A stretch of 64,000 bases of DNA, from NCBI GenBank assembly GCA_963847625.1, contig CAWKAR010000039.1, forward strand, positions 45,244 to 109,243. Direction: 5' to 3'. The notes under the pieces are model-generated. The model searched no databases. It was not told the origin of the DNA and worked only from the letters and a program-made list of their open reading frames with translations. Below are positions 6,016-28,228 of this stretch, piece by piece. Numbering within the stretch: position 1 is the stretch's first letter; each line of letters opens with the position of its first letter. This DNA is from a candidate division FCPU426 bacterium (GTDB taxonomy: Bacteria; Oederibacteriota; Muellerivitia; Muellerivitales; Muellerivitaceae). The position numbers and the translations under genes were made by a program.

Positions 6016-7044
6016 ATGTCCACCAATACCATTTATGAAGTCGCCCAAAAGGCGGGCGTTTCCATTTCCACTGTTTCACGGGTCTTGAACAAAAATCCGA
6101 ATGTCCTGGAAGAGACCCGAAGAAAGGTTTTGAAAGCCATCGAGGAACTCCACTTCAGGCCCAACCCCATTGCGCGCGGCTTGGTGATCAAGCAGACGAA
6201 CCTGATCGAGGTTTTCTTTTCCTGGCCGGGCTACCGGTTCAACCTGGAAAGCGCCTGGTACGTGGAACTCCTCAACGGCGTCAACCAAGTTGTCCAGGAA
6301 AACCAGTTCGGCCTTTTGATCAACACCATCGCGGGGGTTTTCGACCCGCAAGAGGTCTATAAGCGGGTTTTCAATAACGTCGTGGATGGGATCCTCATGG
6401 TTTCGCCTTATCTGGAGGAAAAGGATTTGGTTGAGATCCTGAGCGATCGGGTGCCCATCGTGCTCGTCGGTTACCGGACCTCGGACCCGAAACTGGATTT
6501 CGTGGACAGCGACAATGTCCAGGCTGTAGGCCAGGTGGTCGACCACCTGGCGGGATTAAAGCACAAGAAAATCGCCATCATCACGGGGCAGGTGGATAAC
6601 TCGCGCAACGCCACAGACCGCTTGGAAGGTTTCCGCTCCGCCATGGATAAACACGGATTCAAGATCCCGCCGGAATACATCGTGGGCGGGGATTTTCTTT
6701 TGGAATCCGGCGAGGAAGCCATGAAAAAACTTTTGGCGCTCCGCGACAGGCCGACGGCGGTCTTCGCGTCCAACGATCTCATGGCATTGGGGGCCATCAA
6801 GGCTCTGGAAAAAGCCAAATTGAAAGTGGGGAAGGATATCGCCTTGGTTGGCTTTGATGATATTCCCGAGGCTTCCACCCCGCCCCATTCCCTCACCACC
6901 ATTCATCAGGATTACCGGTCTATCAGCGTGGAAGCCACCCGAATCCTGTTGCAGAAGATCCGGGAACCGGAACAATGGAAGACACGCCAATTGCTGGTCC
7001 CGGCCCAACTGGTGGTACGGCAATCCTGCGGATCAAAGAAATAA
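6016..7044 (+). CDS. LacI-family transcriptional regulator
   Basis: N-terminal HTH TIYEVAQKAGVSISTVSRVLNKNPNV followed by a periplasmic-binding-protein-like sugar-binding core (342 aa). Confidence 0.85.
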   Translation: MSTNTIYEVAQKAGVSISTVSRVLNKNPNVLEETRRKVLKAIEELHFRPNPIARGLVIKQTNLIEVFFSWPGYRFNLESAWYVELLNGVNQVVQENQFGLLINTIAGVFDPQEVYKRVFNNVVDGILMVSPYLEEKDLVEILSDRVPIVLVGYRTSDPKLDFVDSDNVQAVGQVVDHLAGLKHKKIAIITGQVDNSRNATDRLEGFRSAMDKHGFKIPPEYIVGGDFLLESGEEAMKKLLALRDRPTAVFASNDLMALGAIKALEKAKLKVGKDIALVGFDDIPEASTPPHSLTTIHQDYRSISVEATRILLQKIREPEQWKTRQLLVPAQLVVRQSCGSKK

Positions 7045-9751: not shown

Positions 9752-9820
9752 AAAGAAATTCCTAAAACTAAAACCCAATTCATTTATGGGAACCTCTAAA
9801 AATTCATTTAAGCCCTCGCC

Positions 9821-9912: not shown

Positions 9913-10545
9913 ATTTATAGAGGTACCCTTATTCAGAAGCAGTTGAAATGCTTAAGGAGGTGAGTGTTCTTTGAATATTCTTGAAAATCTGGATTGTAAT
10001 GATGATAGATGTTTGCCGGCGGGAGAGGCGCAGAAATATTCGCGAGAGAATCTATTGGCATCATGCCCTGGTGGTGTGGCCCATTTCCCAGGCCGAACGC
10101 ATTTCTTTGTGCCATTCTGGACTCACTGTCTCCAGTGATGAACAAGATATGACTCTATGACCGGGTTCCTTTTTAAAACAAGTTTTAGAGCATTCGAGTA
10201 ACCCGATTTTAAAAATAAGGCTAGCATTTATCCTATCTTTCAGACTATGGACAGACCAAATCATTGTTCCATATGCACAATTAGTTGTGGGTAGCACCCC
10301 TAGGTATGCAGTTTGTAGCTTAAAAGGGGTATGGACCCCTGAATAGGTAGAGCATTAACCCCAAAACCCCGGTTGCCCTGCCTGAAATAACGGTTAAAAT
10401 AATTTTGTGCAATAGGACGGGAACCCAGTTGCAAGAAAATTAAACAAATAACATAGGTTTCGATAAATATTTTTACGGAAGATTTACCCGTTTAACCCAG
10501 CTTTTATTGATACAGGAATCTGAAAGGTTGACCCGAAAAACTTGA

Positions 10546-13500
10546 ATGGAAACCAAATTCGTTAAACCCGTACGCTACGGCGACATCATCGAAATCGACA
10601 TCCACTCCCTCGCCTTCGGGGGGGATTCAGTAGGCCGTTACCGTGATTTTGCCATATTTGTCCCGGGTGGGCTCCCTGGCGAGAGGTTGGCCGTAAAGAT
10701 CACCCGGGTCAAGGACCATTTCGCTACGGGTGAGATTGTCAACTTCCTCAAGCGTTCCCCGGACCGCATTGTCCCAGGTTGTCCCGTATTCGAGGAATGC
10801 GGTGGGTGTCAATGGCAGCACCTACACTATTCCCGACAGCTTCAAGCCAAGCGCCAGTTCGTCGTGGATGCTTTTCAAAGAATCGGGCATCTTTCCAATG
10901 TAGTGGTACAGCCCAGTCTGCCTTCGCCCAATCCATACGCTTACCGCAACAAAGCCCTGCCGGTTCTTTCGATGCGGGAGGGTCATTATGTTTCCGGGAT
11001 CTACGAACCCCGTTCCCACCACTTAGTGCCCTACCAGACATGCCCCATTCAGGGAGACGCCGTCAATGACCTGATCCAAAAAGTCCTGAATAAGATCGAT
11101 CGTTCCGGTTTGACGCCCTACCAGGAAAAAAAACACATAGGTTTTTTAAGGCATTTGGCTGTCCGTCAGGGATTGAAAACGGGCGAGATGATCTTGTCCT
11201 TTATCACCCGCGCAGAGGTGCCTGAGGAACGGCTTCAAAAACCCGCCTTGGTACTGGAATCCCTGGACCATGTCCTGCCACGTCTTGCGGCGGAGCTTAT
11301 GGAGGAGATTCCCGGCCTGGTCGGCGTCCTACAAAACATCAATCCTTCCCGCACCAACGCTGTATTCGGCTCCACCACGCGTCTCCTCGTGGGGCGGGAC
11401 CACTATTTCGAGGTTATCGATGACCTCCGGCTGAGAGTCTCTCTGATGTCCTTCCTGCAGGTCAACACTCTTCAGGCGGATATTCTTCACACCGTCGTCA
11501 GGGAGGCATTGGGAGAACCGGCTCACAAGAAAAAATGGGGGATCCTGCTGGATCTTTTCTCCGGCCTCGGCACCCTGGCCTTGGCTGTTTCCCAAAAGGT
11601 TGATTATGTGGTGGGCATCGAGGAATCAGCCCCCGCCGTGGAAGACGCCAAATTCAACGCGACGTTGAACCAACGGGACAACATCGATTTTCTGGAAGGC
11701 GACGTGGGCCGTGTTCTCATGGGTCTCAAGGAAAAAGGATTAACGCAACTGGACGCTGCGATCATGGACCCTCCCCGCAAAGGAATCCTGCCGGAAGTCC
11801 TGGCACGGTTGACGGCTTTCCACCCGGAAAGATTGGTTTATGTATCCTGTGACCCTTCCACGCTGGCTCGGGATCTTTCCCTTTTAACTAAGCACGGCTA
11901 CTCGGCTGATTGGGCCCAGCCTATCGACATGTTTCCCCAGACCTATCACGTTGAAACGGTGGTGAGACTTACCCGGCAAAAACCTCTCTCCCTTGAGACT
12001 ATGACCGGCCTTTCGGAACAAGCGCTGGAACCTTTCCGTCTTCCCAAAACGGAACCTGTAGCCCTCAATATAAAGGGTTCCTTCGAGGCGCTCTGGAAGG
12101 GGTTGGCCCTGGTATTTCAATCCATGGTGGAACTTCTTGCCAAAGGAAAGGTTAAAGTTCGTCTGTTCTTATCGGTTATGCCCTTAGGATTTAAAAAAGT
12201 TTTAAGTGCTGCTAACTTTATTTACCTCCATTCCCTTAAAACGATCCTTTGGGTATTAAAAATAATCCCAATCACATTCCGATTATTCGCTGGTTTGTTT
12301 TGGCACATGAAAAACTCGTACAATAAATTAGTTTCGGAGAAAAAACTCACCCAGGACTACGATGACTTTTCCCCGACTCCAACCGAAATCGCGAGGATGG
12401 AAGAAACCATTACAAAACCGACCCCGATTCTTTCAGAATGGGTTGAAACTCCATTCCGGGAAGAGTGGGAAGAAGAAACCGCGTTACAACCGCCAGAGGG
12501 CCCAGAGGAACCTCTTTCATCTATTCCGGCTTCCGGGGTGGTTTTATCGTCCTCTTCCATCCAAGAATTAGAGAAAAATGAAATTTCAGAGGGAGAGCTT
12601 TCCTCCGTTCCAGAGACCGGACAGGAACCGCTCCCGGAATGGCCTACTCCGCCACCTTTTCCTAAGCCTCTGACGGCACCGCTCTGGGAAAAATGGAAAT
12701 GGCTTTATAGATCCTTTTTTAAGAGGTCCTTATTCCGTTGGACGGTTTTAGCGGTTCTTTTTTTAGGTATCGGCGCTTATTGGGCCAAAGCAACCCTTTC
12801 ACCCTCCCGGCCCAAAAATTGGCTCCAGGCTCCCACTGTTTCCCAGATGATCCCGGACGCAATCGCCGTCATGCCCACCCGAACCTTCCTTCGCTACGAA
12901 ATGGTGCCCTTTGAGGTGAGGGTGAACCCGAAGAACCAGGCTTATTTCTCGGATATACACGCCTCCGTGGAGATTTTCTGTGACGGTGAACCTGTCAATA
13001 TGGTAGACGGCAGGTCCAAGTTGTATTTAAAAAAAGACCAGGCTGGAAAGAAACTCCTGGGTAATTGGCCGATTCCTTATAATCCCAAGGCTGGCACTTA
13101 TATTGCCGAGATAGCCATTACTTCGCCCCAGTGGCAAACCCCCCATACCTTCGAATCCGCCTTCACCATCGCGCCATTGAAACCGCATGGGCTTTATCCG
13201 GGTTATGCCGCCCTTACCATGGAGGGGGGGAAGCAATTAGTCAACGGGGCGATTCCTCCCCTGGACGGGAACGGATCTTCCAATACCTCCAATGCCATCG
13301 ACTGGGCGAAATTTATCGGTGCCAATCTGTTCTGCGATTTAATGGGGCAGACTTCCATTTGGGACCACCTCGTCAAGGCGGATTTTCCATTCAACCGGCT
13401 TGAAATTGAAACAGGCCACCGATACGCCCGCGCCGCACACGCCAAAGGGTTGAAGTTCGCCAGTTACATGACCACCTTCAAGGTGGAAGGCGACGCCTGG

Positions 13501-14691
13501 CAACAGGCCCCTTACGAATTCTCGCTTGGATACGACCCAGACAGTGATGAGGTGATCCAGACCCGCTTCATTTCGCTTGAGGACAAAAAGCGCCGCCAGG
13601 ATGTCATCGATTTTTTAAGAAAAATGGACCAGGAACCCCTTGTCGATATCATCGGGATGGATTACGTAAGGACCGGTTTCGCGGGTTATGAAATGGTGGA
13701 TGAGTTCGTCAAGGATTTGAACGTGCCGGGGCCGATGGATTTTTGGACCATGTCCAAGCAGGACCGCATCCATTGGCTGGCACGCACCGTGGAATTGAAG
13801 GAAAACCCGCAAGTGGTGGCTCTTTTCGAGTGGTGGAGGGCCCACAAGGTGGCGTTAACCCTGAAAGGCATTCTTGATGAGGCGAAGGTTTCCAAACCCG
13901 TCTTCACCTTCACCCTCGGTTGGGAAATGGGACATCAACACGGCCAAGATCCCGCCATGTTCATCGACGCAGGCGTGGCTTTTAACCACATCATGCTTTA
14001 TGAAGGAACCCGGGAGCACATTGAGGTCATGAAACGGCATTGGCCCGTTTATTTATCCCGGGAAAACGGGATGTACGCCATGGGAGAAATGGTTGACTTC
14101 AACTGGGTCCAGAGGACCACCGATCCTCCGGCACCGTTGGAACTTTTTAACCGGCAAAATGAGACTTTCCAAAATTGGTTTCCCGAAAATGCTTCCCTGG
14201 GCATGTTTTGGCACGACCTTTACCGATTGATTTGGGGAATCCGCGGCCCTTACACCAGCATGGAATGGGCCATATCAGGCGGAAAAGCTTTCTCCGCCTT
14301 GCAACACACCGAGGGGCTTTCACCCATCGACGTAACATTGACCGCCCCGCGGGAAGCTCCCGTTGGAGTGCCGGTTCCCTTGAGTGTGGAAATTCGTAAC
14401 CATTCCCCGGAAGATTTGAAAGGGGTGATACTCCACCAACTGGATGCTTCCAAGAATTACCTGGACGAGTTGGCCACCCTGGGGCCTTTTGACCTTCCAG
14501 CTGGAAATATGGTGAAGGTGAAGAGCCTTTTCCTGAATATGCCCAAGGAAATCCATCCCGAGAGAGACAACCGTTACATGGCGGCGGTTATGGTGGAAAG
14601 ACAGGGAGAACCGCTGAGGGTTTTCGATTTCGCCTATATAAAAGGGTTGCCGTTGGGAACTGTTGTTCGGAAGTTGGACACGCCCCAGTGA
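10546..14691 (+). CDS. Fusion ORF. N-terminal 23S rRNA (uracil-5)-methyltransferase RlmD/RumA (TRAM, 4Fe-4S, SAM-MTase), followed by TM segments, an acidic/Pro-rich linker, a second TM, and a ~650-aa extracytoplasmic TIM-barrel-like putative glycoside-hydrolase-like domain
   Basis: Residues 1-480 carry CPVFEECGGCQWQH, DLFSGLGTLALAV, MDPPRKG and VYVSCDPSTLARDL. There is no stop codon through an AT-rich hydrophobic stretch (12100-12360), then RWTVLAVLFLGIGAYWA, then DIIGMDYVRTGFAGYE-type TIM-barrel motifs. Continuous 1381-aa frame. Confidence 0.6.
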   Translation: METKFVKPVRYGDIIEIDIHSLAFGGDSVGRYRDFAIFVPGGLPGERLAVKITRVKDHFATGEIVNFLKRSPDRIVPGCPVFEECGGCQWQHLHYSRQLQAKRQFVVDAFQRIGHLSNVVVQPSLPSPNPYAYRNKALPVLSMREGHYVSGIYEPRSHHLVPYQTCPIQGDAVNDLIQKVLNKIDRSGLTPYQEKKHIGFLRHLAVRQGLKTGEMILSFITRAEVPEERLQKPALVLESLDHVLPRLAAELMEEIPGLVGVLQNINPSRTNAVFGSTTRLLVGRDHYFEVIDDLRLRVSLMSFLQVNTLQADILHTVVREALGEPAHKKKWGILLDLFSGLGTLALAVSQKVDYVVGIEESAPAVEDAKFNATLNQRDNIDFLEGDVGRVLMGLKEKGLTQLDAAIMDPPRKGILPEVLARLTAFHPERLVYVSCDPSTLARDLSLLTKHGYSADWAQPIDMFPQTYHVETVVRLTRQKPLSLETMTGLSEQALEPFRLPKTEPVALNIKGSFEALWKGLALVFQSMVELLAKGKVKVRLFLSVMPLGFKKVLSAANFIYLHSLKTILWVLKIIPITFRLFAGLFWHMKNSYNKLVSEKKLTQDYDDFSPTPTEIARMEETITKPTPILSEWVETPFREEWEEETALQPPEGPEEPLSSIPASGVVLSSSSIQELEKNEISEGELSSVPETGQEPLPEWPTPPPFPKPLTAPLWEKWKWLYRSFFKRSLFRWTVLAVLFLGIGAYWAKATLSPSRPKNWLQAPTVSQMIPDAIAVMPTRTFLRYEMVPFEVRVNPKNQAYFSDIHASVEIFCDGEPVNMVDGRSKLYLKKDQAGKKLLGNWPIPYNPKAGTYIAEIAITSPQWQTPHTFESAFTIAPLKPHGLYPGYAALTMEGGKQLVNGAIPPLDGNGSSNTSNAIDWAKFIGANLFCDLMGQTSIWDHLVKADFPFNRLEIETGHRYARAAHAKGLKFASYMTTFKVEGDAWQQAPYEFSLGYDPDSDEVIQTRFISLEDKKRRQDVIDFLRKMDQEPLVDIIGMDYVRTGFAGYEMVDEFVKDLNVPGPMDFWTMSKQDRIHWLARTVELKENPQVVALFEWWRAHKVALTLKGILDEAKVSKPVFTFTLGWEMGHQHGQDPAMFIDAGVAFNHIMLYEGTREHIEVMKRHWPVYLSRENGMYAMGEMVDFNWVQRTTDPPAPLELFNRQNETFQNWFPENASLGMFWHDLYRLIWGIRGPYTSMEWAISGGKAFSALQHTEGLSPIDVTLTAPREAPVGVPVPLSVEIRNHSPEDLKGVILHQLDASKNYLDELATLGPFDLPAGNMVKVKSLFLNMPKEIHPERDNRYMAAVMVERQGEPLRVFDFAYIKGLPLGTVVRKLDTPQ

Positions 14692-15051: not shown

Positions 15052-15825
15052 GTGTTTATGGCCTCCTCCAAATTTCTAGCCGCCTGTGGAATCTTGGGGT
15101 TTATTCTTTTGGCCGGATGCGGGGCAGTTTTTGTAAATGAAGGCTCAAAGAACGCTTCCTTGGCCCACGGCTTGGCCAATCCCGAAAAAAACACAATAAA
15201 AGTAAACGTCACTAAAGATGCTTCTGTCATTTCTAATTTCGACGACGGCTCCAATAATGGGAACCCTAAACTTTTCGGCGACGGTTCGGGAACATGGGCT
15301 ACCATGACCTGGGCCGGAAACGCGGTCAACAGCAATTTCGTGGTAAAAGGGGGTGCCAACGGCACCAAGATGGCCGCCCATGTGTTCGGCAGTCTGACCG
15401 ACAAGGGTGATGCTTCCTACCCCGAATTTGACCTGCAATTCAATTTCAAGGGAAAAGACTTGTATGACGCCAGTAATTTCGCGGGTATTAAGTTTTATTA
15501 CAAATGTCCCGCGGCCGACCAAGCCCTCAAACGCCGTTTCAATATTGCCACCGCGCCCACCCTTCCTATGTCTGACGGTGGAACCTGTGAGTCGGCTTGT
15601 TACAACCATTACGGCGCCAATTTGAAGCCCATTTCAGACTGGACGGCGTTGTCCTATAATTTCAGCGATTTAACCAGGTTACCGGGTTGGGGCTCGCCAG
15701 TGGCGCCTCCCGAGTTGACTGAACACTTGAAGGAATTCATCTATATTAAGTGGGGTCATTCCGCGGACAACGCGGCTGGGACTTATACCATCGACTATTG
15801 GGTGGATGAGGTGGAGTTTTTCTGA
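15052..15825 (+). CDS. CBM-like lipoprotein (first gene of the OMP operon)
   Basis: Lipobox LLAGC after an N-terminal signal sequence. SNFDDGS near the N-terminus and YTIDYWVDEVEFF at the C-terminus (carbohydrate-binding-module-like jelly-roll signature). Confidence 0.6.
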   Translation: MFMASSKFLAACGILGFILLAGCGAVFVNEGSKNASLAHGLANPEKNTIKVNVTKDASVISNFDDGSNNGNPKLFGDGSGTWATMTWAGNAVNSNFVVKGGANGTKMAAHVFGSLTDKGDASYPEFDLQFNFKGKDLYDASNFAGIKFYYKCPAADQALKRRFNIATAPTLPMSDGGTCESACYNHYGANLKPISDWTALSYNFSDLTRLPGWGSPVAPPELTEHLKEFIYIKWGHSADNAAGTYTIDYWVDEVEFF

Positions 15826-15873
15826 TTGTTGTTTCTATAAGTTTTTGCCCTAGTTTGACTTTAGGAGTTTTTT

Positions 15874-18800
15874 TTGAAATTTAGCTTTAAAATTTTTATA
15901 ACGTCCTTTTTCTTAAGCCTTTTTTCTTTGGCCACCGGAGCGGGTTTCCTTTTGGCTGATCCAATGGAAAACGTGGGACCCGACCAGAGTCTTTACCAAA
16001 GGGTGAAGAAGCTAGCGGATTTAGGCCTGTTAGACCCCCAGGACCAAGCGGTCCTGGATCAGGGGAAAATAGTCACCCGCCTTGAGTTGGCTTTCTATAC
16101 CGAGAAAGCCGCCGCCAGGATTGAGGCGCCTCAATTGGCATTGCCGAGTCCTACTCCTGAAGTTGTCGCACCGGCTCCGACGGAAGCGCCATTGCAAATG
16201 CCTCCTATTATTTCTGCTCCAGAATTGCCTGCTCCAGCACAACCGGCAACGGCGTTACCCTTGCCTGAAAACACCCCTGTTTCCGCTCAGCCGGCTTTAG
16301 AACTTCCAGCCCCGTCATTGCCCCCGCCGGAAAATACACCAGTTCCACCTTCGGTATTACCGGCACCCTTGCCTGAAAACACCCCGGTCTCCGCACAGCC
16401 GGCTTTAGAGCTTCCAGCACCAGCATTGCCCCCGCCGGAAAATACCCCGGCTCCGCCTCCGGCTTTACCGGCACCAGCGCCACCTTTGCCCGAAAACACT
16501 CCTGTCCCCGCCCCACCGGCTTTAGAGCTTCCAGCTCCTTCATTGCCCCCGCCGGGAAATACCCCGGTTCCGCCTCCGGCTTTACCCGAGCCGGCATTAC
16601 CTTTGCCGGAAAGCACTCCGGTTCCAGCTCTTCCAACACCTTCAACTCCTTCTCCCGTTGTTACTCCTGTTACCACGCCCATAGTCACTTCTGTTCCCAC
16701 ACCGGCTCCCATACTCCCGGAAGCCACCGGTGCCTTGAGAAATGAAATCCAAGATCTGCTGAAACAACTTCACGCGGAGGCGGTTTTTCTTCGCTCGCGT
16801 TTAAGTCTAGATGATCCCCGCATTAAAGCCCAGGAAGACGAGTTGGATAATCTCAAAAAAGTACAAGATGAAGTGGATACCACCTGGAAAAAGGCCGACA
16901 AGTCGGCGGGCATCCCCAATTTCAACACCAACATCAATACCCGATTCGAAAACATCAATGTTTCCGGAAGCCTTGCCACCGAGAGTGTCTCAAAGGCCTT
17001 GGAAGAAATCTGGTGCGGGATGTACTCGGACCTGGGGGGCAAAGGGGCTCTCTCCCTTGGGGTGGGCGGGATCTTGCCTTATGACAACGCCTCTGCCAAC
17101 TATGACTTGTGGGGTGTGTACGGCACAGGACCCGTATCCCTTTATATCGGCAACCCCAGCTGCACTTTGGACCTGTATGGAGACTTGGGCAAGTGGGACA
17201 CCACCTTTGCGGTTGAAGCCTACCAACCCGACACTACTTACGGCGATTTCAGCCGAGGTTACGCCAATAATTCTCTTAAAAGGTTCGAGAATCCTTGGAA
17301 CATTAAGAGCTTCAACGACGATAAGAACGCAAAGAACTGGGACGATTTCATGAGTAACATCAGCTACGTTCCAAGCTATTCCCCGACGGCCGGCAATGTG
17401 CAATCCACCAGCGACCGGGTTATTGATGGTATTTATGCGGTAGGGAAAAATGTGCCTTGGCTAGCCCCGGGAGGACGCATGTGGTTTCTGGCGGGCCGGA
17501 TGGGTGAAACCACAACCCAAAGCCTTCGCTGGGAGGAGGGCGCCAAAATCGACCAGCCTTGGGCCCACAATCTTATTCGGACCGCTATTTCCACCGAGTG
17601 GGTGAACGACAATTTCGGCGTAAGCAACCTGCCCATGACACCCCAGCTAGATATGAAGGATTACTCGGCCGACATCCATTTGAACCTGACCCCCGTCTTA
17701 TTCGATATCGAAGGCGGGTTTTCGCAATTCTACACCGGCAGCGTTTATCCCGGTCCTTCCTATATTCAATCGGGCCTTCTTCAGCCTGATTCCGATGTCA
17801 TTCAGGCGGGCGCGGGCCAAGCCTCCCTGGCTTTTTATCCTCTCACTTTTTACTACTTTGCTATCAGCGAGAATTACGCAGACTTCATGAGCAAAGTCAC
17901 CATGAGCGGGTTCAATTTCTTCCATCACGGGCTTTATTTCAATCCCAGCGATTTCCAAGATGTTTATGGCGCCATTGGGGAAGTAGATAACCTTCAATCC
18001 GACCGGTACGGTTGGAGGGCCAACTTGGGATGGGACGGCCGGGAACAGGATTGGATGAAGAACTGGCCTAGTTTCCTGGATACCTTTATCATCAACTTTG
18101 ACTTGTCCGAAAAGAAAGAATATGTCGCCGAGCAGGGGCAAGAGGGTTGTTTCATGGTGGAACCCACCCAAATGCTAAGCTTTTACTATCCGGACGATGA
18201 GGGTTTGTGGGGTTTGGACCTGTGGGGAAATTACGCCCCCAACGTGAATCCTTTAAGACAGACTTACATCAACAATATTGAACAGCAACGCAACGATGGG
18301 GACATCGTCAACGACGACGTGCGGTACCAGTTTAGGATGACCAGCGAGAGGCTTCCCCTAATTATGCCTATGTATGTTCAAAGTGTAGTGGTGAGCGGTG
18401 GCATCCCCGTTACAACCTATAGTCTAAATCCTGTAACAAATGGACAACCGCCTGCGACTAATAACGGGCATAATATATATGCCAATATCACCGATCTTAA
18501 AACGTACGACTACATAACCTTATCCGCCAAGCTAAAAATGGACAAGTGGTTCGGCTTGAAGACTCCCATGGACGGATTCTTCTTCGTGACCGACAACAAA
18601 GTTTCGGGTGTTGCCTCCAACGCCACCACGGTCCTTCCCACCAGCACTACTATCAACAACATAACACCCACCATCACCGTTAACATCCCCAATCTTTTTG
18701 AACAGTTGGTCTACGATGGATCCATCATGATTAACGCGGTCAAGAATGTGGATTTGATGGGGGACATAGGGGTCGAAACCTGGAAGTCGCAATATACCTA

Positions 18801-18975
18801 CCCCCAGGTGGATTATCGCACTAACGATTATGGACTAGGGCTTGCCTACGACATTCCTTGGGGCGGGGCCAAGTTGGAATTCCGCTATAAGTACCTTGAA
18901 TTCCACGACAATTACGTTCCCGGGAACAATTATTCCGGAAACCAGTATTTCTGCAAAGTTAAGTTTTTGTTTTAA
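15874..18975 (+). CDS. Outer-membrane protein paralog 1 (OmpM/Slp-like): signal peptide, one SLH-like motif, Pro-rich tandem-repeat linker, coiled coil, C-terminal beta-barrel
   Basis: TTG start with AGGAG RBS. Signal peptide. YQRVKKLADLGLLDP...IVTRLELAFYTEKAA is SLH-like. 3.5 copies of a ~36-aa Pro-rich unit. Heptad-like EIQDLLKQLHAEAVFLRSRL...LDNLKKVQDEV. About 650 aa beta-rich region ending KVKFLF. Confidence 0.65.
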   Translation: MKFSFKIFITSFFLSLFSLATGAGFLLADPMENVGPDQSLYQRVKKLADLGLLDPQDQAVLDQGKIVTRLELAFYTEKAAARIEAPQLALPSPTPEVVAPAPTEAPLQMPPIISAPELPAPAQPATALPLPENTPVSAQPALELPAPSLPPPENTPVPPSVLPAPLPENTPVSAQPALELPAPALPPPENTPAPPPALPAPAPPLPENTPVPAPPALELPAPSLPPPGNTPVPPPALPEPALPLPESTPVPALPTPSTPSPVVTPVTTPIVTSVPTPAPILPEATGALRNEIQDLLKQLHAEAVFLRSRLSLDDPRIKAQEDELDNLKKVQDEVDTTWKKADKSAGIPNFNTNINTRFENINVSGSLATESVSKALEEIWCGMYSDLGGKGALSLGVGGILPYDNASANYDLWGVYGTGPVSLYIGNPSCTLDLYGDLGKWDTTFAVEAYQPDTTYGDFSRGYANNSLKRFENPWNIKSFNDDKNAKNWDDFMSNISYVPSYSPTAGNVQSTSDRVIDGIYAVGKNVPWLAPGGRMWFLAGRMGETTTQSLRWEEGAKIDQPWAHNLIRTAISTEWVNDNFGVSNLPMTPQLDMKDYSADIHLNLTPVLFDIEGGFSQFYTGSVYPGPSYIQSGLLQPDSDVIQAGAGQASLAFYPLTFYYFAISENYADFMSKVTMSGFNFFHHGLYFNPSDFQDVYGAIGEVDNLQSDRYGWRANLGWDGREQDWMKNWPSFLDTFIINFDLSEKKEYVAEQGQEGCFMVEPTQMLSFYYPDDEGLWGLDLWGNYAPNVNPLRQTYINNIEQQRNDGDIVNDDVRYQFRMTSERLPLIMPMYVQSVVVSGGIPVTTYSLNPVTNGQPPATNNGHNIYANITDLKTYDYITLSAKLKMDKWFGLKTPMDGFFFVTDNKVSGVASNATTVLPTSTTINNITPTITVNIPNLFEQLVYDGSIMINAVKNVDLMGDIGVETWKSQYTYPQVDYRTNDYGLGLAYDIPWGGAKLEFRYKYLEFHDNYVPGNNYSGNQYFCKVKFLF
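16252..16650 (+). repeat. Intragenic tandem repeat (~108-nt unit, ~3.5 copies) encoding the Pro-rich linker LPENTPVSAQPALELPAPSLPPPENTPVPPxxLPAP
   Basis: Near-identical nucleotide units are visible at 16258, 16375, 16490 and a partial copy at 16600. Confidence 0.8.
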
Positions 18976-18992
18976 CCTTTTGAAAAGGATTA

Positions 18993-21275
18993 TTGGATAA
19001 GAAAGAAATGAAAAAAGGCCTTCAAATTCTTATAGGGTTTCTTCTCTTAAGCCCGGCATTGCCTGCCCGGGCTGATCATGGGCGTTTGGCCACGAATATC
19101 CGGGATTCCTGGATTAATCTGGGCGTGGCTGAATTGGTATCATCAGGATTGGCACAGGACCCGGGTAAGCCCATCAACCAATTGACTAACCTCGAAGTGG
19201 CTCAATTGACGGCCGAGGCCTCCCAAAAATACCTGGCCCAAGCCGATCTCAACCTTCCGGCCCCGCCTTCCGCCGATGAGCCGGCCCTGCCGCCGGAACC
19301 TCCTGCGTCCCTGGCCGCACCCCCGCCCCTGTCGGGAATGGATTCCACGGCAACCCCACAAACCACCCTTCCCAGCAAGAGCATGACGGATCTTGTAGCG
19401 GAATTCCGGAATGAGCTGAGCGCCATGGGGGTTGATGTGGATAAATTGGAACAAAGAATAAATGATTCCAAGGCCCGAAATGAGGTTTTCGCCGCACTCC
19501 AACAAAAATACCTAAAACGAACCGGAACGGATTTGGGAGGGTTCTCCAGGGGTTTTGTCTACGACTACCGGGGATTCGGCACCAATGCGGTCTATCCTGC
19601 CATGGAATATAACGCCGCCATGTTCATGGAGTGGGATTTGAAAAGCATCCCCATCCCCACCGTTTTGTTTGATGCGCGCATGAGGCTGTGGCGTTCCATG
19701 GGCATGTATTACCAGGACCCCTTCGAGCCTGACTATCAACTCAGGTGGATTTCCTTAACGGATTACAATGATTTCGCCAGTTTCACCGCCGGAGACTTTT
19801 TCAAAAGCTATACACCCCTGACCCTTTGGAATTACGAAGTGCCCGTTTACACCTTGGTGGAACCGGCATCCTTCCACCGGGTTCGTAAGGATACGGAAGA
19901 ACTGGCTTATGTGGACCATGGCTCGGACTGGCACATGAGGGGAATCCAGGCTTCCACTTCCTTTGATTGGCCCAAGGAAATGTTCCTCAGCGGGTTTGGT
20001 TTGCAGGCCATGGTGGGAACCATGATGAACGGGGGAGGTTTCAGTTTCAGCAGTTATTACGCCGGAACCCAGGGGTCCATCAGCCTTTTCAACGATTTCT
20101 TGACGGTCAAGGGCACCGGATTGCGTCTTTGGGACGATATCAATTCAGCAAATCCAAACATCGACCAAAACCTTTATATTCCATCCGCCTTTCCGAAGGA
20201 ATACCAAATCGGAAGCCTGACTGGTTCCGTCTCATTCATTTTCAGCGACAAAGCAGACTTGGTCGGGACCGTTGAGGGTGCTTTCAGCCAATATTATGAC
20301 GACCTGTACGACACTTCGAGGGAATTCCAGGATTGGGCAATACTGGGCAACGCCTCCTTGGATATTCAGGGGGTCCACTTCACCGGCAAGTACCTCAATG
20401 TCGGCCCGAATTTTTATTCCCCTGGGGCTCAAACCAACCGGTATACCCCGGCGGCCGGCTTTCAAGGCTACTGGAGCACGACCATGAACGGGGTGGATGA
20501 CGCCTTGCCGGGTTACTTGGACGACTTCGTGTTCCAAAACGTCAGTCGGCCCTCTTTCGCTCCCTACGACCGTTTATCCGAGAATTTTCTTCCTTATGGG
20601 GATTCCTCGCCAGACCGGAAAGGCATCGTGTTGGGCTTTTCGGGCGAATTGGGGGATAACAAGTGGCTGAAGCCGCAAGCTTCTTATCTTCTCAACGCCC
20701 AGGAAATCCAACCCAATTATGTTTTACAGAGTAGCAACAGCATCATCCCTGTGGACAGCAACACCACCACGACGGTGGCCCGTGTTTTTGGCGGCTATGA
20801 GGGGGCCTTGACTCTGGATTTCGCGAAAGCCTTAAACATGAAAGGGAAGACCTATGACCTCCAATTCGATTACAAACACCAGACCACGGATTTAGGCGTG
20901 GGAGCGAGCCCCTTTACAGTTAATACTATTATCGCGGCCGTGGATTTCAACATACCCCTTCATTTCGCATCCCGCTTGGTTTGGTCCGCATCCTTGGAAC
21001 AGGCCCAAGCCAGCGGCAGCGAGTACGTATTGTCAGGCGTTGGTAGTCCACCGACCTTGGCAAATTATGCCTTCTATCTGGACCCTCAGAACCAATTTAT
21101 CTATCAGTCTTTGAACATCACCCGGGACATTTTGGCCTTGGGGGCCATGTACCCCATCAGCGACAAAATCGATCTTCGATGCGATTGGTTTTTCGTGGAT
21201 TACAAGTGGACTGACAACCCTGACTTCGACCGCAGGGACCAAATTTGGAGAATGACGTATGAAGCGCATTTCTAA
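18993..21275 (+). CDS. Outer-membrane protein paralog 2 (OmpM/Slp-like)
   Basis: Signal peptide (alternative ATG at 19008). SLH-like WINLGVAELVSSGLAQDP...LTNLEVAQLTAEA. Pro-rich linker, coiled-coil segment, and a beta-rich C-terminal domain homologous to the paralogs (shared Y..D.NDF..F.AGDF..SYTPLTLWN; NVGPNFYSPGAQT). Ends TYEAHF. Confidence 0.65.
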   Translation: MDKKEMKKGLQILIGFLLLSPALPARADHGRLATNIRDSWINLGVAELVSSGLAQDPGKPINQLTNLEVAQLTAEASQKYLAQADLNLPAPPSADEPALPPEPPASLAAPPPLSGMDSTATPQTTLPSKSMTDLVAEFRNELSAMGVDVDKLEQRINDSKARNEVFAALQQKYLKRTGTDLGGFSRGFVYDYRGFGTNAVYPAMEYNAAMFMEWDLKSIPIPTVLFDARMRLWRSMGMYYQDPFEPDYQLRWISLTDYNDFASFTAGDFFKSYTPLTLWNYEVPVYTLVEPASFHRVRKDTEELAYVDHGSDWHMRGIQASTSFDWPKEMFLSGFGLQAMVGTMMNGGGFSFSSYYAGTQGSISLFNDFLTVKGTGLRLWDDINSANPNIDQNLYIPSAFPKEYQIGSLTGSVSFIFSDKADLVGTVEGAFSQYYDDLYDTSREFQDWAILGNASLDIQGVHFTGKYLNVGPNFYSPGAQTNRYTPAAGFQGYWSTTMNGVDDALPGYLDDFVFQNVSRPSFAPYDRLSENFLPYGDSSPDRKGIVLGFSGELGDNKWLKPQASYLLNAQEIQPNYVLQSSNSIIPVDSNTTTTVARVFGGYEGALTLDFAKALNMKGKTYDLQFDYKHQTTDLGVGASPFTVNTIIAAVDFNIPLHFASRLVWSASLEQAQASGSEYVLSGVGSPPTLANYAFYLDPQNQFIYQSLNITRDILALGAMYPISDKIDLRCDWFFVDYKWTDNPDFDRRDQIWRMTYEAHF

Positions 21276-23658
21276 AATAATCCTCTTTTCATTCATAGGC
21301 TTTTTCCTGGCTCAGGTGAAAAGTGTGGCTTTGGCGGGCGACAACCTTTTCACGGTTGTCCCGGCCAATGACTCGACCTATGAGAGCCTCCAGCAACTGG
21401 AACAAGCCGGGTTGCTGACTTCCGGATCTTCCCGCGCGCCCCTTACGCGTTTTGAGGTTGCCGGGCTTATCATGAAAGCCCAGAAAAAATACGACGAGAT
21501 CGTCGTAGCCGATTCCGATTTGGATCTTCCGGCCCCTTCGGATATGACAATCACCCCACCTATTTCCACTCCCACTCCTGCTGCGGCTGCACCTGCGGCG
21601 GCTGTTCCCGCTAAAACGGCAGTTCCCACGCTCTCACCCACGCCTGATGAGGCGGTTGTGCTGGCACAGGCATTGAAAAGCCTGCACAACCTGAAGGAGG
21701 CCTATCAATATGAACTCGACCGCGTAAAAGGCGATGTGAAAATGACGGAAGACCAAGAAACCACCGTGGAAAACTCACAATATGCCCTTTGGAAACGTCT
21801 CCAGGGAATCACTGAGTACCCCACCATCACCTGGCATGGGCTGGGGAGAGCTTTTGGTATTTCGCGGCAATACTGGGGCGATCCGGCATATTCCTCCTTG
21901 GGTTCAGCCGAGCGGGAAGGTTTCGGTTACCTGGATTTTCAGCCCATAGGGGTGGTTTCTAAACAAGTTCGGTGGGACGCGGTTTTGAGGTATCAAACGG
22001 CTTTTGAGTCGAACAACTATCCCGGCATCGATTGGTTGTTGTTCCGCAGAGCGACCATGGAATTCAATCCTTCCTGGTTTTCCGCTACAGTGGGGGATTT
22101 TGAGGAATCCTATACGCCTTTGACCCTTTGGAACCGAAACAACCTGGATCTGCGTTACATGCCCGAAATGTACCAGCGCGCCGACGATACTTACAAATAT
22201 GAAAATTACCTGAACCAAGAGCCGGATTGGCCGTTCCGGGGCGCTCGCGTGGGAACCGCACTATTGTGGCCCGAATCGGATCTTATGGACCAGTTTAAGG
22301 TTTCCGTCATGACGGATATGATCCGGAATGCTTTCGACGATAACAATAAGGTTGGTGTTTTTTACGGTTTCGACCAATTCACCGGCTGGATTGTCGGAAC
22401 CAACGGCGAGATCAAACTAAAAAGGTGGTACTTAGGCGGCGGAACCTCCCTCCAACTGGCATTGGACGCCTATGGACTGTTATTGGATGATCCCCTGAAC
22501 ACCAACAAGCCTGGAGCTCCCTATTCTCCCTATAACCCGGATACTTGGGGCCATCAATACCGGATTTCCAGTCTCAAGCCTTCCGTAGACGCCGGGGTTG
22601 GAGGGGATACGTCCATCGGGATGGTTTGGGAGTGGGCTTCCGTCACATATGTGGACGACAAAATGGATTCATTGAAGAATATGGAGGATTATGCGGTGAT
22701 GGGCGGACCCTATTTGCGGTTCGGCAAATCAAAAATATCATTCAATTACCTGAACGTCGGCCCCTATTTTTATTCTCCCCTGGCCCAAACCCGCCAGGAC
22801 GAGGTTTCAGCCCCTACGGCAGCCTCGCCGGTGGCATCCGGATTCTTGCCGACTTCCGAGCTCTTTACACCCGCCTTGCGAAGCCGGTTTTTCCTCAGCG
22901 ATGTGCCCCGGCCAGGTGAAATTTACAGTTTCTACGACCGGACCCAGGATAATACCTTCCCTTATGGATTGGGGACTCCCAACCGTCAGGGAACTGGTTT
23001 TGAAGTGGACGTTAAAACCCTTCCTAAGGATTCATTGAAAATCCTTGGATCGGTCTATTTTGTACAGGAAATCAGTGGTAACCTTGTTGTGGACAGCGCT
23101 GGAACGGGTTATGTGCCTGTGGACGCACCGCCATTTGAGACGGTTCCCGTCCGTAATTTCACCTATGTGAATATTGGATCTTCATTCAATTTGGGACCCG
23201 TCATCGGAATGGGCCGGGATTTGGTACTGGGGACCAATGTCCGTTACGAAAAAACCACCAGTTCGATTGGGACCTTAACCAGTATTTGGGTTTTAGGGGG
23301 GGTGAAAATCGGGGTTTTGGATGGATGGGATGTTTCCGCATCCTACGGGAGTCAAGCGGTCACCGGAACGGAAGCTGGTTATGTTTACGCTGATTCCACC
23401 GGGGTTTCGCACCAAACCTTTTTGGCCCGTTATCCCTATCTTTTCGACAATTCCGATTTGGGCTATTACCAACCATTTAGTGTCAACGGTACCAACCAGA
23501 GCGTCCAGCTGTCCAGCGAAGTCCGGACAAGCCGGAATACGAGGTTTTACGCGGATTACGGCTTCACCAGTGGCGATGTCGTACCCTATGTGGGGACTGC
23601 CAACACGGGGACCTTGCATAACGAGTTTATGGAGTTGACTTATGAAATCCAATTTTAA
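21259..23658 (+). CDS. Outer-membrane protein paralog 3 (OmpM/Slp-like)
   Basis: 17-nt overlap with the upstream gene. Signal peptide. SLH-like YESLQQLEQAGLLTS...LTRFEVAGLIMKA. Ala/Pro-rich linker, coiled coil, beta-rich domain with the same conserved blocks (VGDFEESYTPLTLWN; NVGPYFYSPLAQT). Ends LTYEIQF. Confidence 0.65.
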   Translation: MKRISKIILFSFIGFFLAQVKSVALAGDNLFTVVPANDSTYESLQQLEQAGLLTSGSSRAPLTRFEVAGLIMKAQKKYDEIVVADSDLDLPAPSDMTITPPISTPTPAAAAPAAAVPAKTAVPTLSPTPDEAVVLAQALKSLHNLKEAYQYELDRVKGDVKMTEDQETTVENSQYALWKRLQGITEYPTITWHGLGRAFGISRQYWGDPAYSSLGSAEREGFGYLDFQPIGVVSKQVRWDAVLRYQTAFESNNYPGIDWLLFRRATMEFNPSWFSATVGDFEESYTPLTLWNRNNLDLRYMPEMYQRADDTYKYENYLNQEPDWPFRGARVGTALLWPESDLMDQFKVSVMTDMIRNAFDDNNKVGVFYGFDQFTGWIVGTNGEIKLKRWYLGGGTSLQLALDAYGLLLDDPLNTNKPGAPYSPYNPDTWGHQYRISSLKPSVDAGVGGDTSIGMVWEWASVTYVDDKMDSLKNMEDYAVMGGPYLRFGKSKISFNYLNVGPYFYSPLAQTRQDEVSAPTAASPVASGFLPTSELFTPALRSRFFLSDVPRPGEIYSFYDRTQDNTFPYGLGTPNRQGTGFEVDVKTLPKDSLKILGSVYFVQEISGNLVVDSAGTGYVPVDAPPFETVPVRNFTYVNIGSSFNLGPVIGMGRDLVLGTNVRYEKTTSSIGTLTSIWVLGGVKIGVLDGWDVSASYGSQAVTGTEAGYVYADSTGVSHQTFLARYPYLFDNSDLGYYQPFSVNGTNQSVQLSSEVRTSRNTRFYADYGFTSGDVVPYVGTANTGTLHNEFMELTYEIQF

Positions 23659-24550
23659 CCGGCAAAAAGAAACCAGAATCCCTGTCCGGAAGACCCTTTC
23701 GGTCCGAATAGCAATCGGTTTTGCTATCGCTTTAATTCCATTAATCGCAGGTTTTTTGGGCTGTAAAAACAGCGTGCCTTCTTATGGAACCTATCCTGAC
23801 CCTGGTTCCACCTTGGACTGGAGCACGGTGGCTAATTTTGATTCCAATTCCGCCACCGTCAACCCGAACCTTTTTGAATCGAGTAATCCCCCCACCTACA
23901 AGTTGAAAACGGTGGGTGGCGCTGTTACGGCGGTAAACGACTGGTCGGCTTACATTACTATATCTTCGAACCCACCCACTGTGCAAAACAACACCGTTGT
24001 CCTCGGCGGGGCTACCACTTTGACGATCCCATTTGCACCCTGGTTGGACAGTCCCGGAGCGGCCGGCACATCTCATGCTTTCCACGTGACCGGCGCGCTC
24101 ATAGACCCGGGAGATTATTCAAGCTTTGACTCGGTGAAATTGCAAGCTCAGATGGAGGGAGGCGGGTTTTATGACGCCAGTTTTTTCACGGGGGTCAAGT
24201 ACTACCTGAAGGTGGCAAGCGACGACAGCACGCTTTACCGTTTTTTCAGCATCCCGGTTTACCAGACAACCAGCCCCGTTGGGGGCGGTGGATGCATGGG
24301 CGGGCCGAGGCTTTGCGACGATTCTTTCGCGGCGGATTTCAGCAGCGGCACCGGCGGCCAATGGAAACTATTCAGCTATAAATTCTCTGATCTGCATCAA
24401 TTGCAACCCGGTGTCATCACGAATCCGCCCACTTTGAGCGGGGTCAACCTTCAGCAGATATTTTTCTTGGAATGGGACGAGGGCAGGAACAATCAACCCG
24501 GTGTTTCATATTTTGATTTTTGGGTGGACGACATCGAGTTCTTTAAGTAA
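23642..24550 (+). CDS. CBM-like lipoprotein
   Basis: 17-nt overlap with OMP3. Lipobox IAGFLGC. VANFDSNS ... FFTGVKYYLK ... WKLFSYKFSDL ... FDFWVDDIEFFK. Confidence 0.6.
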   Translation: MKSNFNRQKETRIPVRKTLSVRIAIGFAIALIPLIAGFLGCKNSVPSYGTYPDPGSTLDWSTVANFDSNSATVNPNLFESSNPPTYKLKTVGGAVTAVNDWSAYITISSNPPTVQNNTVVLGGATTLTIPFAPWLDSPGAAGTSHAFHVTGALIDPGDYSSFDSVKLQAQMEGGGFYDASFFTGVKYYLKVASDDSTLYRFFSIPVYQTTSPVGGGGCMGGPRLCDDSFAADFSSGTGGQWKLFSYKFSDLHQLQPGVITNPPTLSGVNLQQIFFLEWDEGRNNQPGVSYFDFWVDDIEFFK

Positions 24551-24589
24551 CGGGGAGTCCGACATCAGGTTTGACCCCGGGAGGTTATC

Positions 24590-25507
24590 ATGAAAGGCAT
24601 ATGGCTTCGGACATCGTTGGTTTTATTTTCCGCGGTATTTACCGCGGGAGTATTGTGGCTTTCCCAGGGCTGCAATTATCAAATACCGTCCTTGGCGGCG
24701 GCAGTGGCCACTCCCCAGGCCACGAACGTGGTCAGTAATTTCACAAACGGTTCCTTGAAGATGAACCCTTCGTTAAAGGGTGCTGACGGCGGTTATTTCC
24801 AGCAGATCACCTATGGGGGAGCGCCGGGGCTCACCAACATGATCAACAACAGCCTCCAGCCCAATATCCTGGAGGCGAATCCCGGGAACGGAAGCAGCGT
24901 ATACGCGGTCCATCTTTACGGGGCGCAGTACGACTATTGCGCGACAGGCCTCGGTTCGTCCACTTACCCCGCCTTCTTTCTTTACGGTTTCTTGAGCAAC
25001 GATCCAGTGAAGCATTATCTCTTCGACCTGAGTCCATTTACAGGCGTCAAGTTCGATATCAATATCAAGATCGATGATGGAGTGGTTCTCGGCACTCAAA
25101 ACACCACCAAAACCCAGGATGGTGCTTATCAAAGAATGTTCGCCATCGGCGTGGCCCAACAAACCCCTCCCACCAACGATCCGGGAGGCATTTGCCCTCC
25201 CTCCTTCAGCTCCAATTGCTATGACTATTATTGGGGGGATAGTAGTGCCTTTCCCGGCCCCGGGTCGGGATGGAGTCCGGTCAGTTTCCTTTTTTCCAAT
25301 TTGACAACTTCGACTTGGGGCGTAAACCTTGGTGCCTTGACTGACCCTTGCAACGGCACAATTAACTATTCCGGAGTTTCTCTCCCTTGTCCATCCAGCG
25401 GTAGTATGCTCACACAGGCCCTTTTTCTCATCTGGAAATTCGGAGACAACGGCGCCTGCCACAACGTTTATGTGGATTTTTGGGTGGATAACGTCGCGTT
25501 TTATTGA
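24590..25507 (+). CDS. CBM-like lipoprotein
   Basis: Signal peptide with lipobox LSQGC. VSNFTNGS ... FTGVKFDINIK ... WSPVSFLFSNL ... YVDFWVDNVAFY. Multiple Cys pairs. Confidence 0.6.
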   Translation: MKGIWLRTSLVLFSAVFTAGVLWLSQGCNYQIPSLAAAVATPQATNVVSNFTNGSLKMNPSLKGADGGYFQQITYGGAPGLTNMINNSLQPNILEANPGNGSSVYAVHLYGAQYDYCATGLGSSTYPAFFLYGFLSNDPVKHYLFDLSPFTGVKFDINIKIDDGVVLGTQNTTKTQDGAYQRMFAIGVAQQTPPTNDPGGICPPSFSSNCYDYYWGDSSAFPGPGSGWSPVSFLFSNLTTSTWGVNLGALTDPCNGTINYSGVSLPCPSSGSMLTQALFLIWKFGDNGACHNVYVDFWVDNVAFY

Positions 25508-27493: not shown

Positions 27494-28228
27494 ATGGAAA
27501 ACCTGAATTACTATCTTTACGCTGCGGCGGGCGTACTGACTCTTGTGGAAATCCTCCTGAAATGGGTTTTTACCTCGATCCGCCAAAACCAGGGCCTGAA
27601 AGGGATGGTGGAAACGGCCGATTCGCTTTGGGTGGCCATTTTGCTGGCCCTAGCATTGAAAGCTGTCCTGCTCCAGCCATTCACCATTCCCTCCGGCAGC
27701 ATGGAGGATACCCTCCTCGTCGGCGATTATATACTGGTAAAAAAGTACGAATACGGTTACTCGGTTTGGAACAGCACTCCCCGGTTTCTGCAATTCAAGA
27801 AACCGCAGAACAGGGAAATCCTGGTTTTCGTTTATCCCGGGGACCACACCAAAGACTTTGTCAAGCGATGCATCGGAATACCAGGAGATGTGATTGAATA
27901 TAAAAAAAAGGAACTTTATGTCAACGGGATCAAACAGGTTGAACCCTATGTCAAGCATATCGATCCTACTTATGAACCTCCAGGAGATTACTTCAACGGG
28001 AAACGGGATAATTTTGGGCCGGTCACGGTGGAATCGGGACATTACTTCATGATGGGGGACAACCGGGACAACAGCATGGATTCCCGCTACTGGGGCCAAT
28101 TGGACGAGAAACTCATCAAAGGAAGGGCCTGGGCGATTTACTGGCATAGCCTTCATTTTTTCAGCTTGGGCGCCCTTTGGGACTCGCTCAAATTTTGTTT
28201 CCACCGCATGTTTTCAGTGATTCATTGA
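27494..28228 (+). CDS. lepB: Signal peptidase I
   Basis: N-terminal TM, SGSMEDTLLVGDYILVKK (box B, Ser nucleophile), GDNRDNSMDSRYWG (box E). Confidence 0.9.
   Translation: MENLNYYLYAAAGVLTLVEILLKWVFTSIRQNQGLKGMVETADSLWVAILLALALKAVLLQPFTIPSGSMEDTLLVGDYILVKKYEYGYSVWNSTPRFLQFKKPQNREILVFVYPGDHTKDFVKRCIGIPGDVIEYKKKELYVNGIKQVEPYVKHIDPTYEPPGDYFNGKRDNFGPVTVESGHYFMMGDNRDNSMDSRYWGQLDEKLIKGRAWAIYWHSLHFFSLGALWDSLKFCFHRMFSVIH

Follow-up and report, generated by a model that had tools for sequence, protein, structure and literature searches.

A bacterium of the candidate division FCPU426 carries, in the 64,000-nucleotide stretch of its genome analysed here (assembly GCA_963847625.1, contig CAWKAR010000039.1, positions 45,244 to 109,243 of the forward strand; hereafter the window), one open reading frame (ORF) in which an rRNA methyltransferase of the RlmD type is followed by a long tether, an internal segment resembling a signal peptide, and a large C-terminal module (Table 1). 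This ORF is almost certainly a genuine fusion that is translated as one polypeptide. Taken as a whole, the data are best explained by an old fusion fixed in FCPU426, with RlmD in the cytoplasm and the module exported via the internal signal-like segment, and we regard this explanation as likely. RlmD-type rRNA methyltransferases are held to be soluble housekeeping enzymes, and a lineage that makes the enzyme only as the cytoplasmic end of a membrane-inserted, exported protein is unexpected. No account of such a fusion was found in the literature on FCPU426 and on RlmD fusions. A protein identical to the product (P0001) is recorded in NCBI, ENA and Logan. The headline of a preliminary description of this DNA, namely a single ORF joining RlmD/RumA to a membrane-inserted extracytoplasmic domain similar to a triosephosphate isomerase (TIM) barrel, is borne out by profile matches, by the barrel in an AlphaFold2 (AF2) model and by the relatives of the protein.

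An unbroken frame across FCPU426

How can a genuine fusion be told from two neighbouring genes that have been run together? When residues 478-1381 were used as a query, 57 proteins were retrieved, the great majority of which are 1260-1509 amino acids (aa) long and carry TRAM and tRNA_U5-meth_tr domains. These fusion homologues share 50-74% identity and stem from independent assemblies (NCBI, ENA, JGI and Logan). A locus scan, made with one genome per species, found 39 loci, and most of those at 52-89% identity bear the label candidate division FCPU426. In every one of the 23 loci that cluster with FCPU426, taken from both short- and long-read assemblies, RlmD and the module lie in one open frame of 1146-1541 aa (a contig end truncates L006 and L011). 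The catalytic Cys is present in all 23 frames and the iron-sulphur (Fe-S) motif C..F..CGGC in 22, that is, in all those whose frame covers the region; the L006 frame begins inside the methyltransferase domain, downstream of the motif. Across loci the linker between RlmD and the module varies from 220 to 415 aa, and the 5425 linker codons of 17 loci contain no in-frame stop, versus 186 and 165 stops in the other two frames. From composition, the probability of such a stop-free linker is log10 P = -88.7.

In the window ORF itself, the 125 codons past RlmD are 58% AT, against about 65% in the preliminary description, and 6.9 stops would be expected in them; the chance of finding none was recomputed as 9e-4, close to the value of about 5e-4 claimed before, and it is 2e-6 for the whole linker of 253 codons. 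At 12000-12450 the GC content drops to 0.39-0.43, whereas the coding sequence on either side has 0.52-0.55. A comparison of the window with L001, its closest relative, put the ratio of nonsynonymous to synonymous substitution rates (dN/dS) at 0.064 in RlmD, at about 0.3 in the linker and at 0.04 in the module; as dS is saturated, these values are rough.

The preliminary description had left a choice between a genuine fusion and a recent stop loss or assembly error, and had proposed a comparison with related genomes. This comparison revealed no stop codon between RlmD and the module; the genuine fusion stands, and the other choice is refuted by a frame kept across relatives whose proteins diverge by 50-70%. 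A case for an assembly or sequencing artefact, or for a very recent stop loss joining two neighbouring genes, could still be built on the intergenic-like GC of the junction DNA and on the few database entries that appear as two genes (P0017/P0205, P0206 and P0208). However, neither the single frame common to divergent species representatives, whether short- or long-read, nor a linker with no in-frame stop and with dN/dS below 1 is what an artefact would leave, and indel frameshifts account for the split entries, in one case within the catalytic domain. We give this alternative practically no chance.

The split entries were considered as unfused versions of the gene and were rejected one after another. 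L040 (P0017/P0205) has a +1 frameshift at a TTTT homopolymer (about 5985-6003), and deleting one T restores the frame; in L042 (P0208; 5001-9232) the frameshift lies inside the RlmD catalytic domain; L041 (P0206) lies on a nanopore contig that is broken up into many small ORFs. In long-read FCPU426 assemblies (ENA 'contig_...', '_np1212'), indel frameshifts split the fusion gene into two or more called genes, and gene-length statistics from such assemblies would falsely suggest unfused forms. A further observation concerns taxonomic labels: the records of L007, L020 and L024 name an 'uncultured proteobacterium' or 'Candidatus Firestonebacteria', although these loci have the fusion and cluster of FCPU426 type, and the labels or the binning are probably wrong.

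In searches with the RlmD half, identity drops from at least 71% (FCPU426 proteins, fused or partial) to at most 44%, and the group below the drop consists of the ordinary RlmDs, about 455 aa long, of Halanaerobiales and other Firmicutes, the nearest of which is 44% identical to the fused RlmD half. From this abrupt drop it follows that the clade is without a close unfused RlmD orthologue.

Parts of the fusion protein

Judged by its sequence, the N-terminal part of 477 residues is a 23S rRNA 5-methyluridine (m5U) methyltransferase of the type that employs a [4Fe-4S] cluster and S-adenosylmethionine (SAM), and its catalytic residues are under strong purifying selection. RlmD and RlmCD are 23S rRNA m5U1939 / m5U747 methyltransferases. 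The RlmD profile TIGR00479 matches residues 24-470 with 392.6 bits (cutoff 183.55), in agreement with the earlier statement that the methyltransferase is complete by about codon 480, and the Pfam domains PF05958 (tRNA_U5-meth_tr) and PF01938 (TRAM) reach 57.1 bits (cutoff 23) and 40.3 bits (cutoff 21), respectively. The AF2 model is confident over the whole half. Four cysteines (C79/C85/C88/C166) are invariant in 40 family members, and so are DPPR(KG), DLFSGLGT, C435 in VYVSCDP and E470 in HVET, all of which align with solved RlmCD; going by the residue roles in the RumA structures, the four cysteines are the Fe-S ligands, C435 is the nucleophile and E470 the general base. Residues 10-477 align end to end with RlmCD 5xj1 (229 bits), and likewise with RumA 1uwv. 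TRAM, Fe-S and SAM motifs, the Cys and the Glu are thus common to the fusion and to RlmD (RumA) of Escherichia coli and RlmCD of Streptococcus pneumoniae/Bacillus subtilis (PDB 1uwv, 2bh2, 5xj1). The known enzymes are soluble, single-function proteins of about 430-480 aa that end at the HVETV strand, whereas the fusion runs 900 residues further.

Scans of residues 478-1381 against Pfam and NCBIfam gave no family match. The first element behind RlmD is a motif that is conserved across the fusion family and missing from ordinary RlmDs, which end in HVETV. It leads into two long helices with AF2 confidence values (predicted local distance difference test, pLDDT) of 55-79, hydrophobic moments of 0.3-0.46 and a Lys every few residues. 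Of the low-GC, hydrophobic stretch of about 125 codons described earlier, the low GC is confirmed, and the hydrophobic character holds in part: most of it is a Lys-studded amphipathic helix and not a clean transmembrane (TM) helix. Within the family, this first hydrophobic region varies from strongly hydrophobic to merely Ala/Gly-rich. In the core FCPU426 proteins it most probably forms a hairpin or lies along the surface, and does not make a single pass through the membrane, because P0054 and P0070/P0325 have only one hydrophobic segment, because homologues are exported, and because basic residues lie on the N-side. The acidic spacer that comes next has pLDDT below 50 over residues 599-711 and a dN/dS of 0.39, yet it is stop-free; residues 611-730 hold 22 Asp/Glu versus 10 Lys/Arg, as expected from the acidic linker of the preliminary description, and the hydrophobic TM-type segment reported there is RWTVLAVLFLGIGAYWA at residues 731-747. 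By these sequence features, the tether is weakly constrained, fast-evolving and flexible.

The module, about 630 aa long where about 650 aa of TIM-barrel-like sequence had been announced, was modelled by AF2 with pLDDT 88.9 and a predicted template modelling score (pTM) of 0.89, and the model contains a (beta/alpha)8 barrel placed between two beta-sandwiches. In a phmmer search of 1.84 billion representatives, the module family comprises 198 clusters at E <= 1e-3, most of 600-750 aa. A signal peptide, lipobox or anchor stands at the start of 75 of the 91 full-length representatives. Twelve loci, from Zixibacteria, Coatesbacteria and unclassified metagenome-assembled genomes, encode stand-alone module proteins of 560-679 aa with no adjacent rlmD; ten of them have a lipobox (nine LSCG; VGC in L034), and in L036 and L037 a hydrophobic signal or anchor is found instead. 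Since stand-alone homologues mostly start in this manner, the module is normally extracytoplasmic, and its family is one of small number, unannotated, normally exported three-domain proteins built around a glycoside-hydrolase-like barrel. Other N-terminally extended members (P0097, P0105, P0108, P0111, P0121, P0124, P0175 and P0072) were inspected as possible further fusions; they have no recognisable domains and are not RlmD fusions.

What does the module do? Its conserved polar residues are, in module numbering, E143, S260, R266, D289, R292, E299, K367, H382, Q384, D385, D391, Y402, D434, R453, H473, D474, R477 and E490, among which conservation across the family reaches at least 89% for E143, D289, D385, D434 and H473-D474; E431, on beta-7, varies. 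The module and three stand-alone homologues matched no Pfam or NCBIfam family, the GHL families included, at E <= 10 / <= 1. The barrels compared were the GHL10 domain (PF02638) of Cwp19, a lytic transglycosylase of Clostridioides difficile (PDB 5oq2; PMC5765458, PMC6016235), and PgaB/BpsB of GH153/GHL13 (6au1). Their (beta/alpha)8 folds can be superimposed on that of the module at 9-12% identity, whereas the module differs from them by its extra N- and C-terminal beta-sandwiches and by its set of conserved polar residues. Fold and context tip the balance slightly towards a glycan-active enzyme.

The same order of parts is found in a distant relative, P0070 (1135 aa; L043 8001-11408, contig JAUXIB010000064.1, assembly GCA_030621225.1), whose module is 32% identical to that of the window. 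Its N-terminal domain matches RlmD with 24% identity over 487 residues (E 2e-21) and keeps the TRAM fold and the Fe-S cysteines. SAM motif I is lost, DPPRKG has become HSRNEK, SCDP with the nucleophile Cys has become AESA, and HVE with the general base has become GMR. A homology search with P0070 added one further member, P0325, which is 70% identical to it and has the same layout. P0061 and P0322 also have this layout and are more degenerate; the alignment of P0061 with P0070 spans the degenerate Rossmann half, the TM segment and the module. Thus, as read from these sequences, an architecture of RlmD-derived domain, membrane segment and module is present in at least two very divergent lineages, in one of which the methyltransferase is a predicted pseudoenzyme. 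Retention of a catalytically dead RlmD-derived domain suggests that the cytoplasmic domain also serves the fusion in a way that needs no methyl transfer. The RlmD fold can, it would appear, be kept for a non-catalytic purpose, which hints at a functional link between the two halves.

Topology, processing and possible functions

The internal segment has the n/h/c organisation of Sec signal peptides processed by signal peptidase (SPase) I, with a positive n-region, an h-region within the usual 7-15 residues and small residues at -3 and -1. Its h-region is 14-15 residues long and closes in a Gly-rich break. In 40 sequences A749 never varies, and conservation is at least 90% at A747 and G743; the -3 to -1 triplets are AKA (19 times), AMA (three times), ATA and AAA, to which ARA, read from the P0054 sequence, can be added. 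In the deep-branching P0054, RlmD is followed by a polar linker of about 85 aa, one hydrophobic segment ending A-R-A, and then the module. The segment is spaced from the ..RYE(M/L)V.. start of the module in the same way as the N-terminal signals or lipoboxes of the stand-alone homologues are. Two differences must be mentioned. Sec signal peptides are N-terminal, whereas this one lies some 730 residues inside a protein, behind a folded Fe-S enzyme; and the stand-alone homologues of Zixibacteria and Coatesbacteria carry lipoprotein (SPase II) signals, unlike the A-x-A of the fusion.

Because RlmD depends on an Fe-S cluster, rRNA and the SAM of the cytoplasm, and because relatives of the module are exported, the segment probably crosses the membrane N-in/C-out with the module outside, as far as its sequence allows a prediction. 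The following course can then be proposed. RlmD would fold and act in the cytoplasm, and the signal-like segment would insert N-in/C-out via the signal recognition particle (SRP) and SecYEG, moving the module to the periplasm, where it may act on envelope or extracellular glycan together with the exported proteins of the downstream cluster. Cleavage by SPase I is plausible in view of the near-invariant A-x-A, the Gly break and the shortness of the h-region; whether the predicted site is used we would put at a little short of an even chance. Were it cut, the module would be set free, and RlmD would stay tail-anchored to the inner membrane by a flexible leash of about 200 residues. If there is no cleavage, the product would be a bitopic, bifunctional enzyme. 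The simplest history would be that an upstream rlmD lost its stop and was read into the precursor of an exported protein, since the signal-like segment sits where the stand-alone homologues have their N-terminal signal peptide.

Several points weigh against this explanation. Topology and cleavage are predictions from sequence only, and the signal-like segment shows a modest positive-inside bias (2.96 Lys+Arg on the N-side versus 1.81 past the site). In several members the first hydrophobic segment is strong (Kyte-Doolittle up to 2.6), and if it spanned the membrane once, the module would be cytoplasmic. As E431 is variable, the predicted catalytic residues of the module do not make the classic Glu/Glu pair of clan A, and the word 'glycosidase' relies on fold matches at about 10% identity between a model and solved barrels. 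As for a single old origin, a neighbour-joining tree of the saturated module sequences groups all the fused ones together with a bootstrap of 14%, and the pseudo-RlmD domain is equidistant from fused and ordinary RlmDs; the data fit neither one ancient fusion nor two events preferentially.

The matter of the first segment can be pursued further. If it were a true TM helix, the spacer would be periplasmic, the second segment would return and the module would stay in the cytoplasm. Many members do have two hydrophobic segments, and in P0006, P0010, P0011 and P0057 the first reaches Kyte-Doolittle values of 2.0-2.6. However, it is weak or Ala/Gly-rich in P0018, P0020, P0021, P0026, P0031 and P0032 and missing in P0054 and P0070/P0325, the second segment has its basic residues gathered on the N-side, export is nearly always seen in homologues of the module, and the two-helix hairpin that AF2 predicts for the first region implies an even number of passes or none. 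A cytoplasmic module is therefore very improbable.

Another possibility is a gene within a gene, in which the module is made mainly from an internal start upstream of the signal-like segment, and RlmD with its tether is a separate or minor product. The segment looks exactly like an N-terminal signal peptide, a promoter-like sequence can be matched at 12300-12329, and ATGs are found at codons 588 and 618. The preliminary description had pointed to such a promoter and to an ATG with TM-protein features near 12290-12310, and neither held up: the promoter-like match has 9/12 positions, and three of this quality were found where shuffled sequences give 5.1 +/- 2.4, which is chance level, while M588 precedes some 140 residues of acidic spacer and is no start of a TM protein. 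An in-frame start linked to a Shine-Dalgarno (SD) sequence near the segment is lacking in the window ORF, a result of limited power as a clear SD is seen in only 6/14 genes; SD use being only moderate in the genome, a missing SD is weak evidence. In the family, no start codon is conserved in the n-region, and an in-frame start with an SD occurs in 2/18 loci (within the 47 codons before the h-region), against about 34% expected by chance. An internal start would, moreover, leave unexplained why the frame is never broken over a hypervariable linker of such length. We consider it quite improbable, and an internal signal within one continuous polypeptide is still preferred.

It might be possible that the fusion works as a coupling device. 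RsgI anti-sigma factors, which sense polysaccharides, consist of a cytoplasmic domain, a single membrane segment and an extracytoplasmic module of carbohydrate type (PMC10328401, PMC12203970), and the order of parts in these and in the bitopic ToxR and CadC matches that of the fusion, whose topology is a predicted one. By analogy, the module would sense or bind glycan and control the cytoplasmic RlmD(-like) RNA-binding domain, through RlmD availability, through membrane release by regulated proteolysis, or through its position near membrane-bound ribosomes. Besides the order of parts, the dead RlmD-derived domain kept in the same position in P0070, P0325 and P0061, the conserved post-RlmD motif and helices, and the co-located LacI regulator and conserved exported cluster would suit such a device. 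However, the signalling is purely hypothetical, a disordered and hypervariable tether is a poor conduit for conformational signals, the highly conserved active-site-like constellation of the module suits an enzyme better than a pure sensor, and the strictly conserved catalytic residues of FCPU426 RlmDs are explained by ordinary housekeeping. RsgI, ToxR and CadC have an anti-sigma or DNA-binding output, whereas the fusion has an rRNA-modifying enzyme; Pfam and NCBIfam scans of the neighbours showed no sigma factor or partner gene, and no autoproteolytic juxtamembrane domain was identified. Coupling of this kind is unlikely. Rather improbable, too, is the view that the RlmD(-derived) domain is the cytoplasmic end of a trans-envelope device linking envelope or extracellular glycan status to large-subunit rRNA modification, or to the siting of ribosome assembly and translation at the membrane, in which the tether might be released by signal peptidase or regulated proteolysis and the dead RlmD fold would be retained for RNA or ribosome binding and not for methyl transfer. 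If coupling did exist, envelope or carbohydrate status would be tied to ribosome biogenesis.

With the module predicted to be exported through its internal signal, the fusion would offer a natural bacterial case in which a Sec signal follows a large folded Fe-S domain, and on which the rules that separate use as a signal anchor from cleavage by signal peptidase could be tested. It is also a handle on an unannotated exported enzyme family and on a dark envelope gene cluster in an uncultured phylum of soil and peat. Even if the link between RlmD and the module is merely historical, the gene is a clean, datable Rosetta-stone fusion and a synapomorphy of FCPU426.

Gene neighbourhood

The fusion gene heads a conserved same-strand cluster, with the LacI-family regulator and a gene for a 249-aa protein upstream of it and six tightly packed ORFs downstream; past these come lepA, lepB, a hemN-like gene and hrcA. 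The downstream synteny is kept in about 20 FCPU426 loci and in the deep P0054 lineage. None of the six downstream proteins matched a Pfam or NCBIfam family even at lenient thresholds. The 257-aa protein has a lipobox (LLAGC), and the 1033-aa protein a signal peptide, long Pro-rich repeats and a C-terminal ..KFLF; a guess that the latter contains an S-layer homology (SLH) domain was dropped, as no match supports it. The 257-, 302- and 305-aa proteins cross-match at 25-38%, and the 760- and 799-aa proteins at 25-27%. By such sequence features the group looks like a 'dark' envelope gene cluster. The autotransporter encoded in the window indicates a diderm envelope.

Table 1. Coordinates of the fusion gene, its parts and other features in the window
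Feature	Residues	Position	Strand	Remarks
Whole fusion ORF	1-1381	10546..14691	+	1381 aa; stop included in coordinates
RlmD half	1-477	10546..11976	+	TRAM 12-65, Fe-S cysteines, U5-methyltransferase domain 327-477
Post-RlmD motif	478-515	11977..12090	+	Family consensus LEPFRLPKP.EP.SLNISANF.AFKEKT
Two long amphipathic/hydrophobic helices	509-544, 548-599	12070..12342	+	AF2 hairpin; low-GC DNA
Disordered acidic Pro/Glu/Ser-rich spacer	600-711	12343..12678	+	Length and sequence hypervariable in family
Signal-peptide-like segment		12679..12792	+	Basic n-region (..EKWKWLYRSFFKRSLFR), h-region WTVLAVLFLGIGAYW, c-region A747-K-A749, then TLSP
Module, predicted to be exported	751-1381	12796..14688	+	Beta-sandwich, barrel, beta-sandwich
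Module N-terminal beta-sandwich		12835-13170	+	AF2
Module (beta/alpha)8 barrel		13207-14310	+	AF2
Module C-terminal beta-sandwich		14326-14649	+	AF2
LacI-family regulator		6016..7044	+	Pfam; conserved upstream of fusion gene
Six unannotated, apparently exported proteins		15052..25507	+	257, 1033, 760, 799, 302, 305 aa; downstream, syntenic
Signal peptidase I lepB (Peptidase_S26)		27494..28228	+	After lepA, just past cluster
Autotransporter, 1579 aa		15-4754		PF03797 beta-domain and PATR repeats

Between the acyltransferase-3 gene and the fusion gene lie about 800 nucleotides (9752-10545) that hold no long plus-strand ORF and have short minus-strand ORFs of 64-78 aa. A long hairpin at about 9813-9904, which may be a terminator or a palindromic element, has sub-threshold Rfam matches of the microRNA-precursor type on both strands; an Rfam scan of 9700-12900 gave sub-threshold hairpin-type matches only and no known RNA family.

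The lepA-lepB pair of the window is found at 25567-28228, and in L015 lepA directly follows the fusion gene. In L043, a Peptidase_S26 gene (6268-7044) precedes the pseudo-RlmD fusion by two genes. That signal peptidase I is encoded within a few genes of the fusion in both divergent lineages could reflect shared ancestral synteny or a functional link without proving either, and as a pointer to processing of the fusion by SPase I the nearby lepB is circumstantial.

In Coatesbacteria and Zixibacteria, the stand-alone module lipoprotein lies between two neighbours (L033, 8893-9810 and 11859-12968; L027, 8887-9804 and 11894-13171), which are a conserved 305-aa membrane-anchored protein, encoded after glyS, and a putative group-1 glycosyltransferase, as judged by eye from the sequence. 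If the latter is truly a glycosyltransferase, it would fit a role of the module in envelope or exopolysaccharide metabolism.

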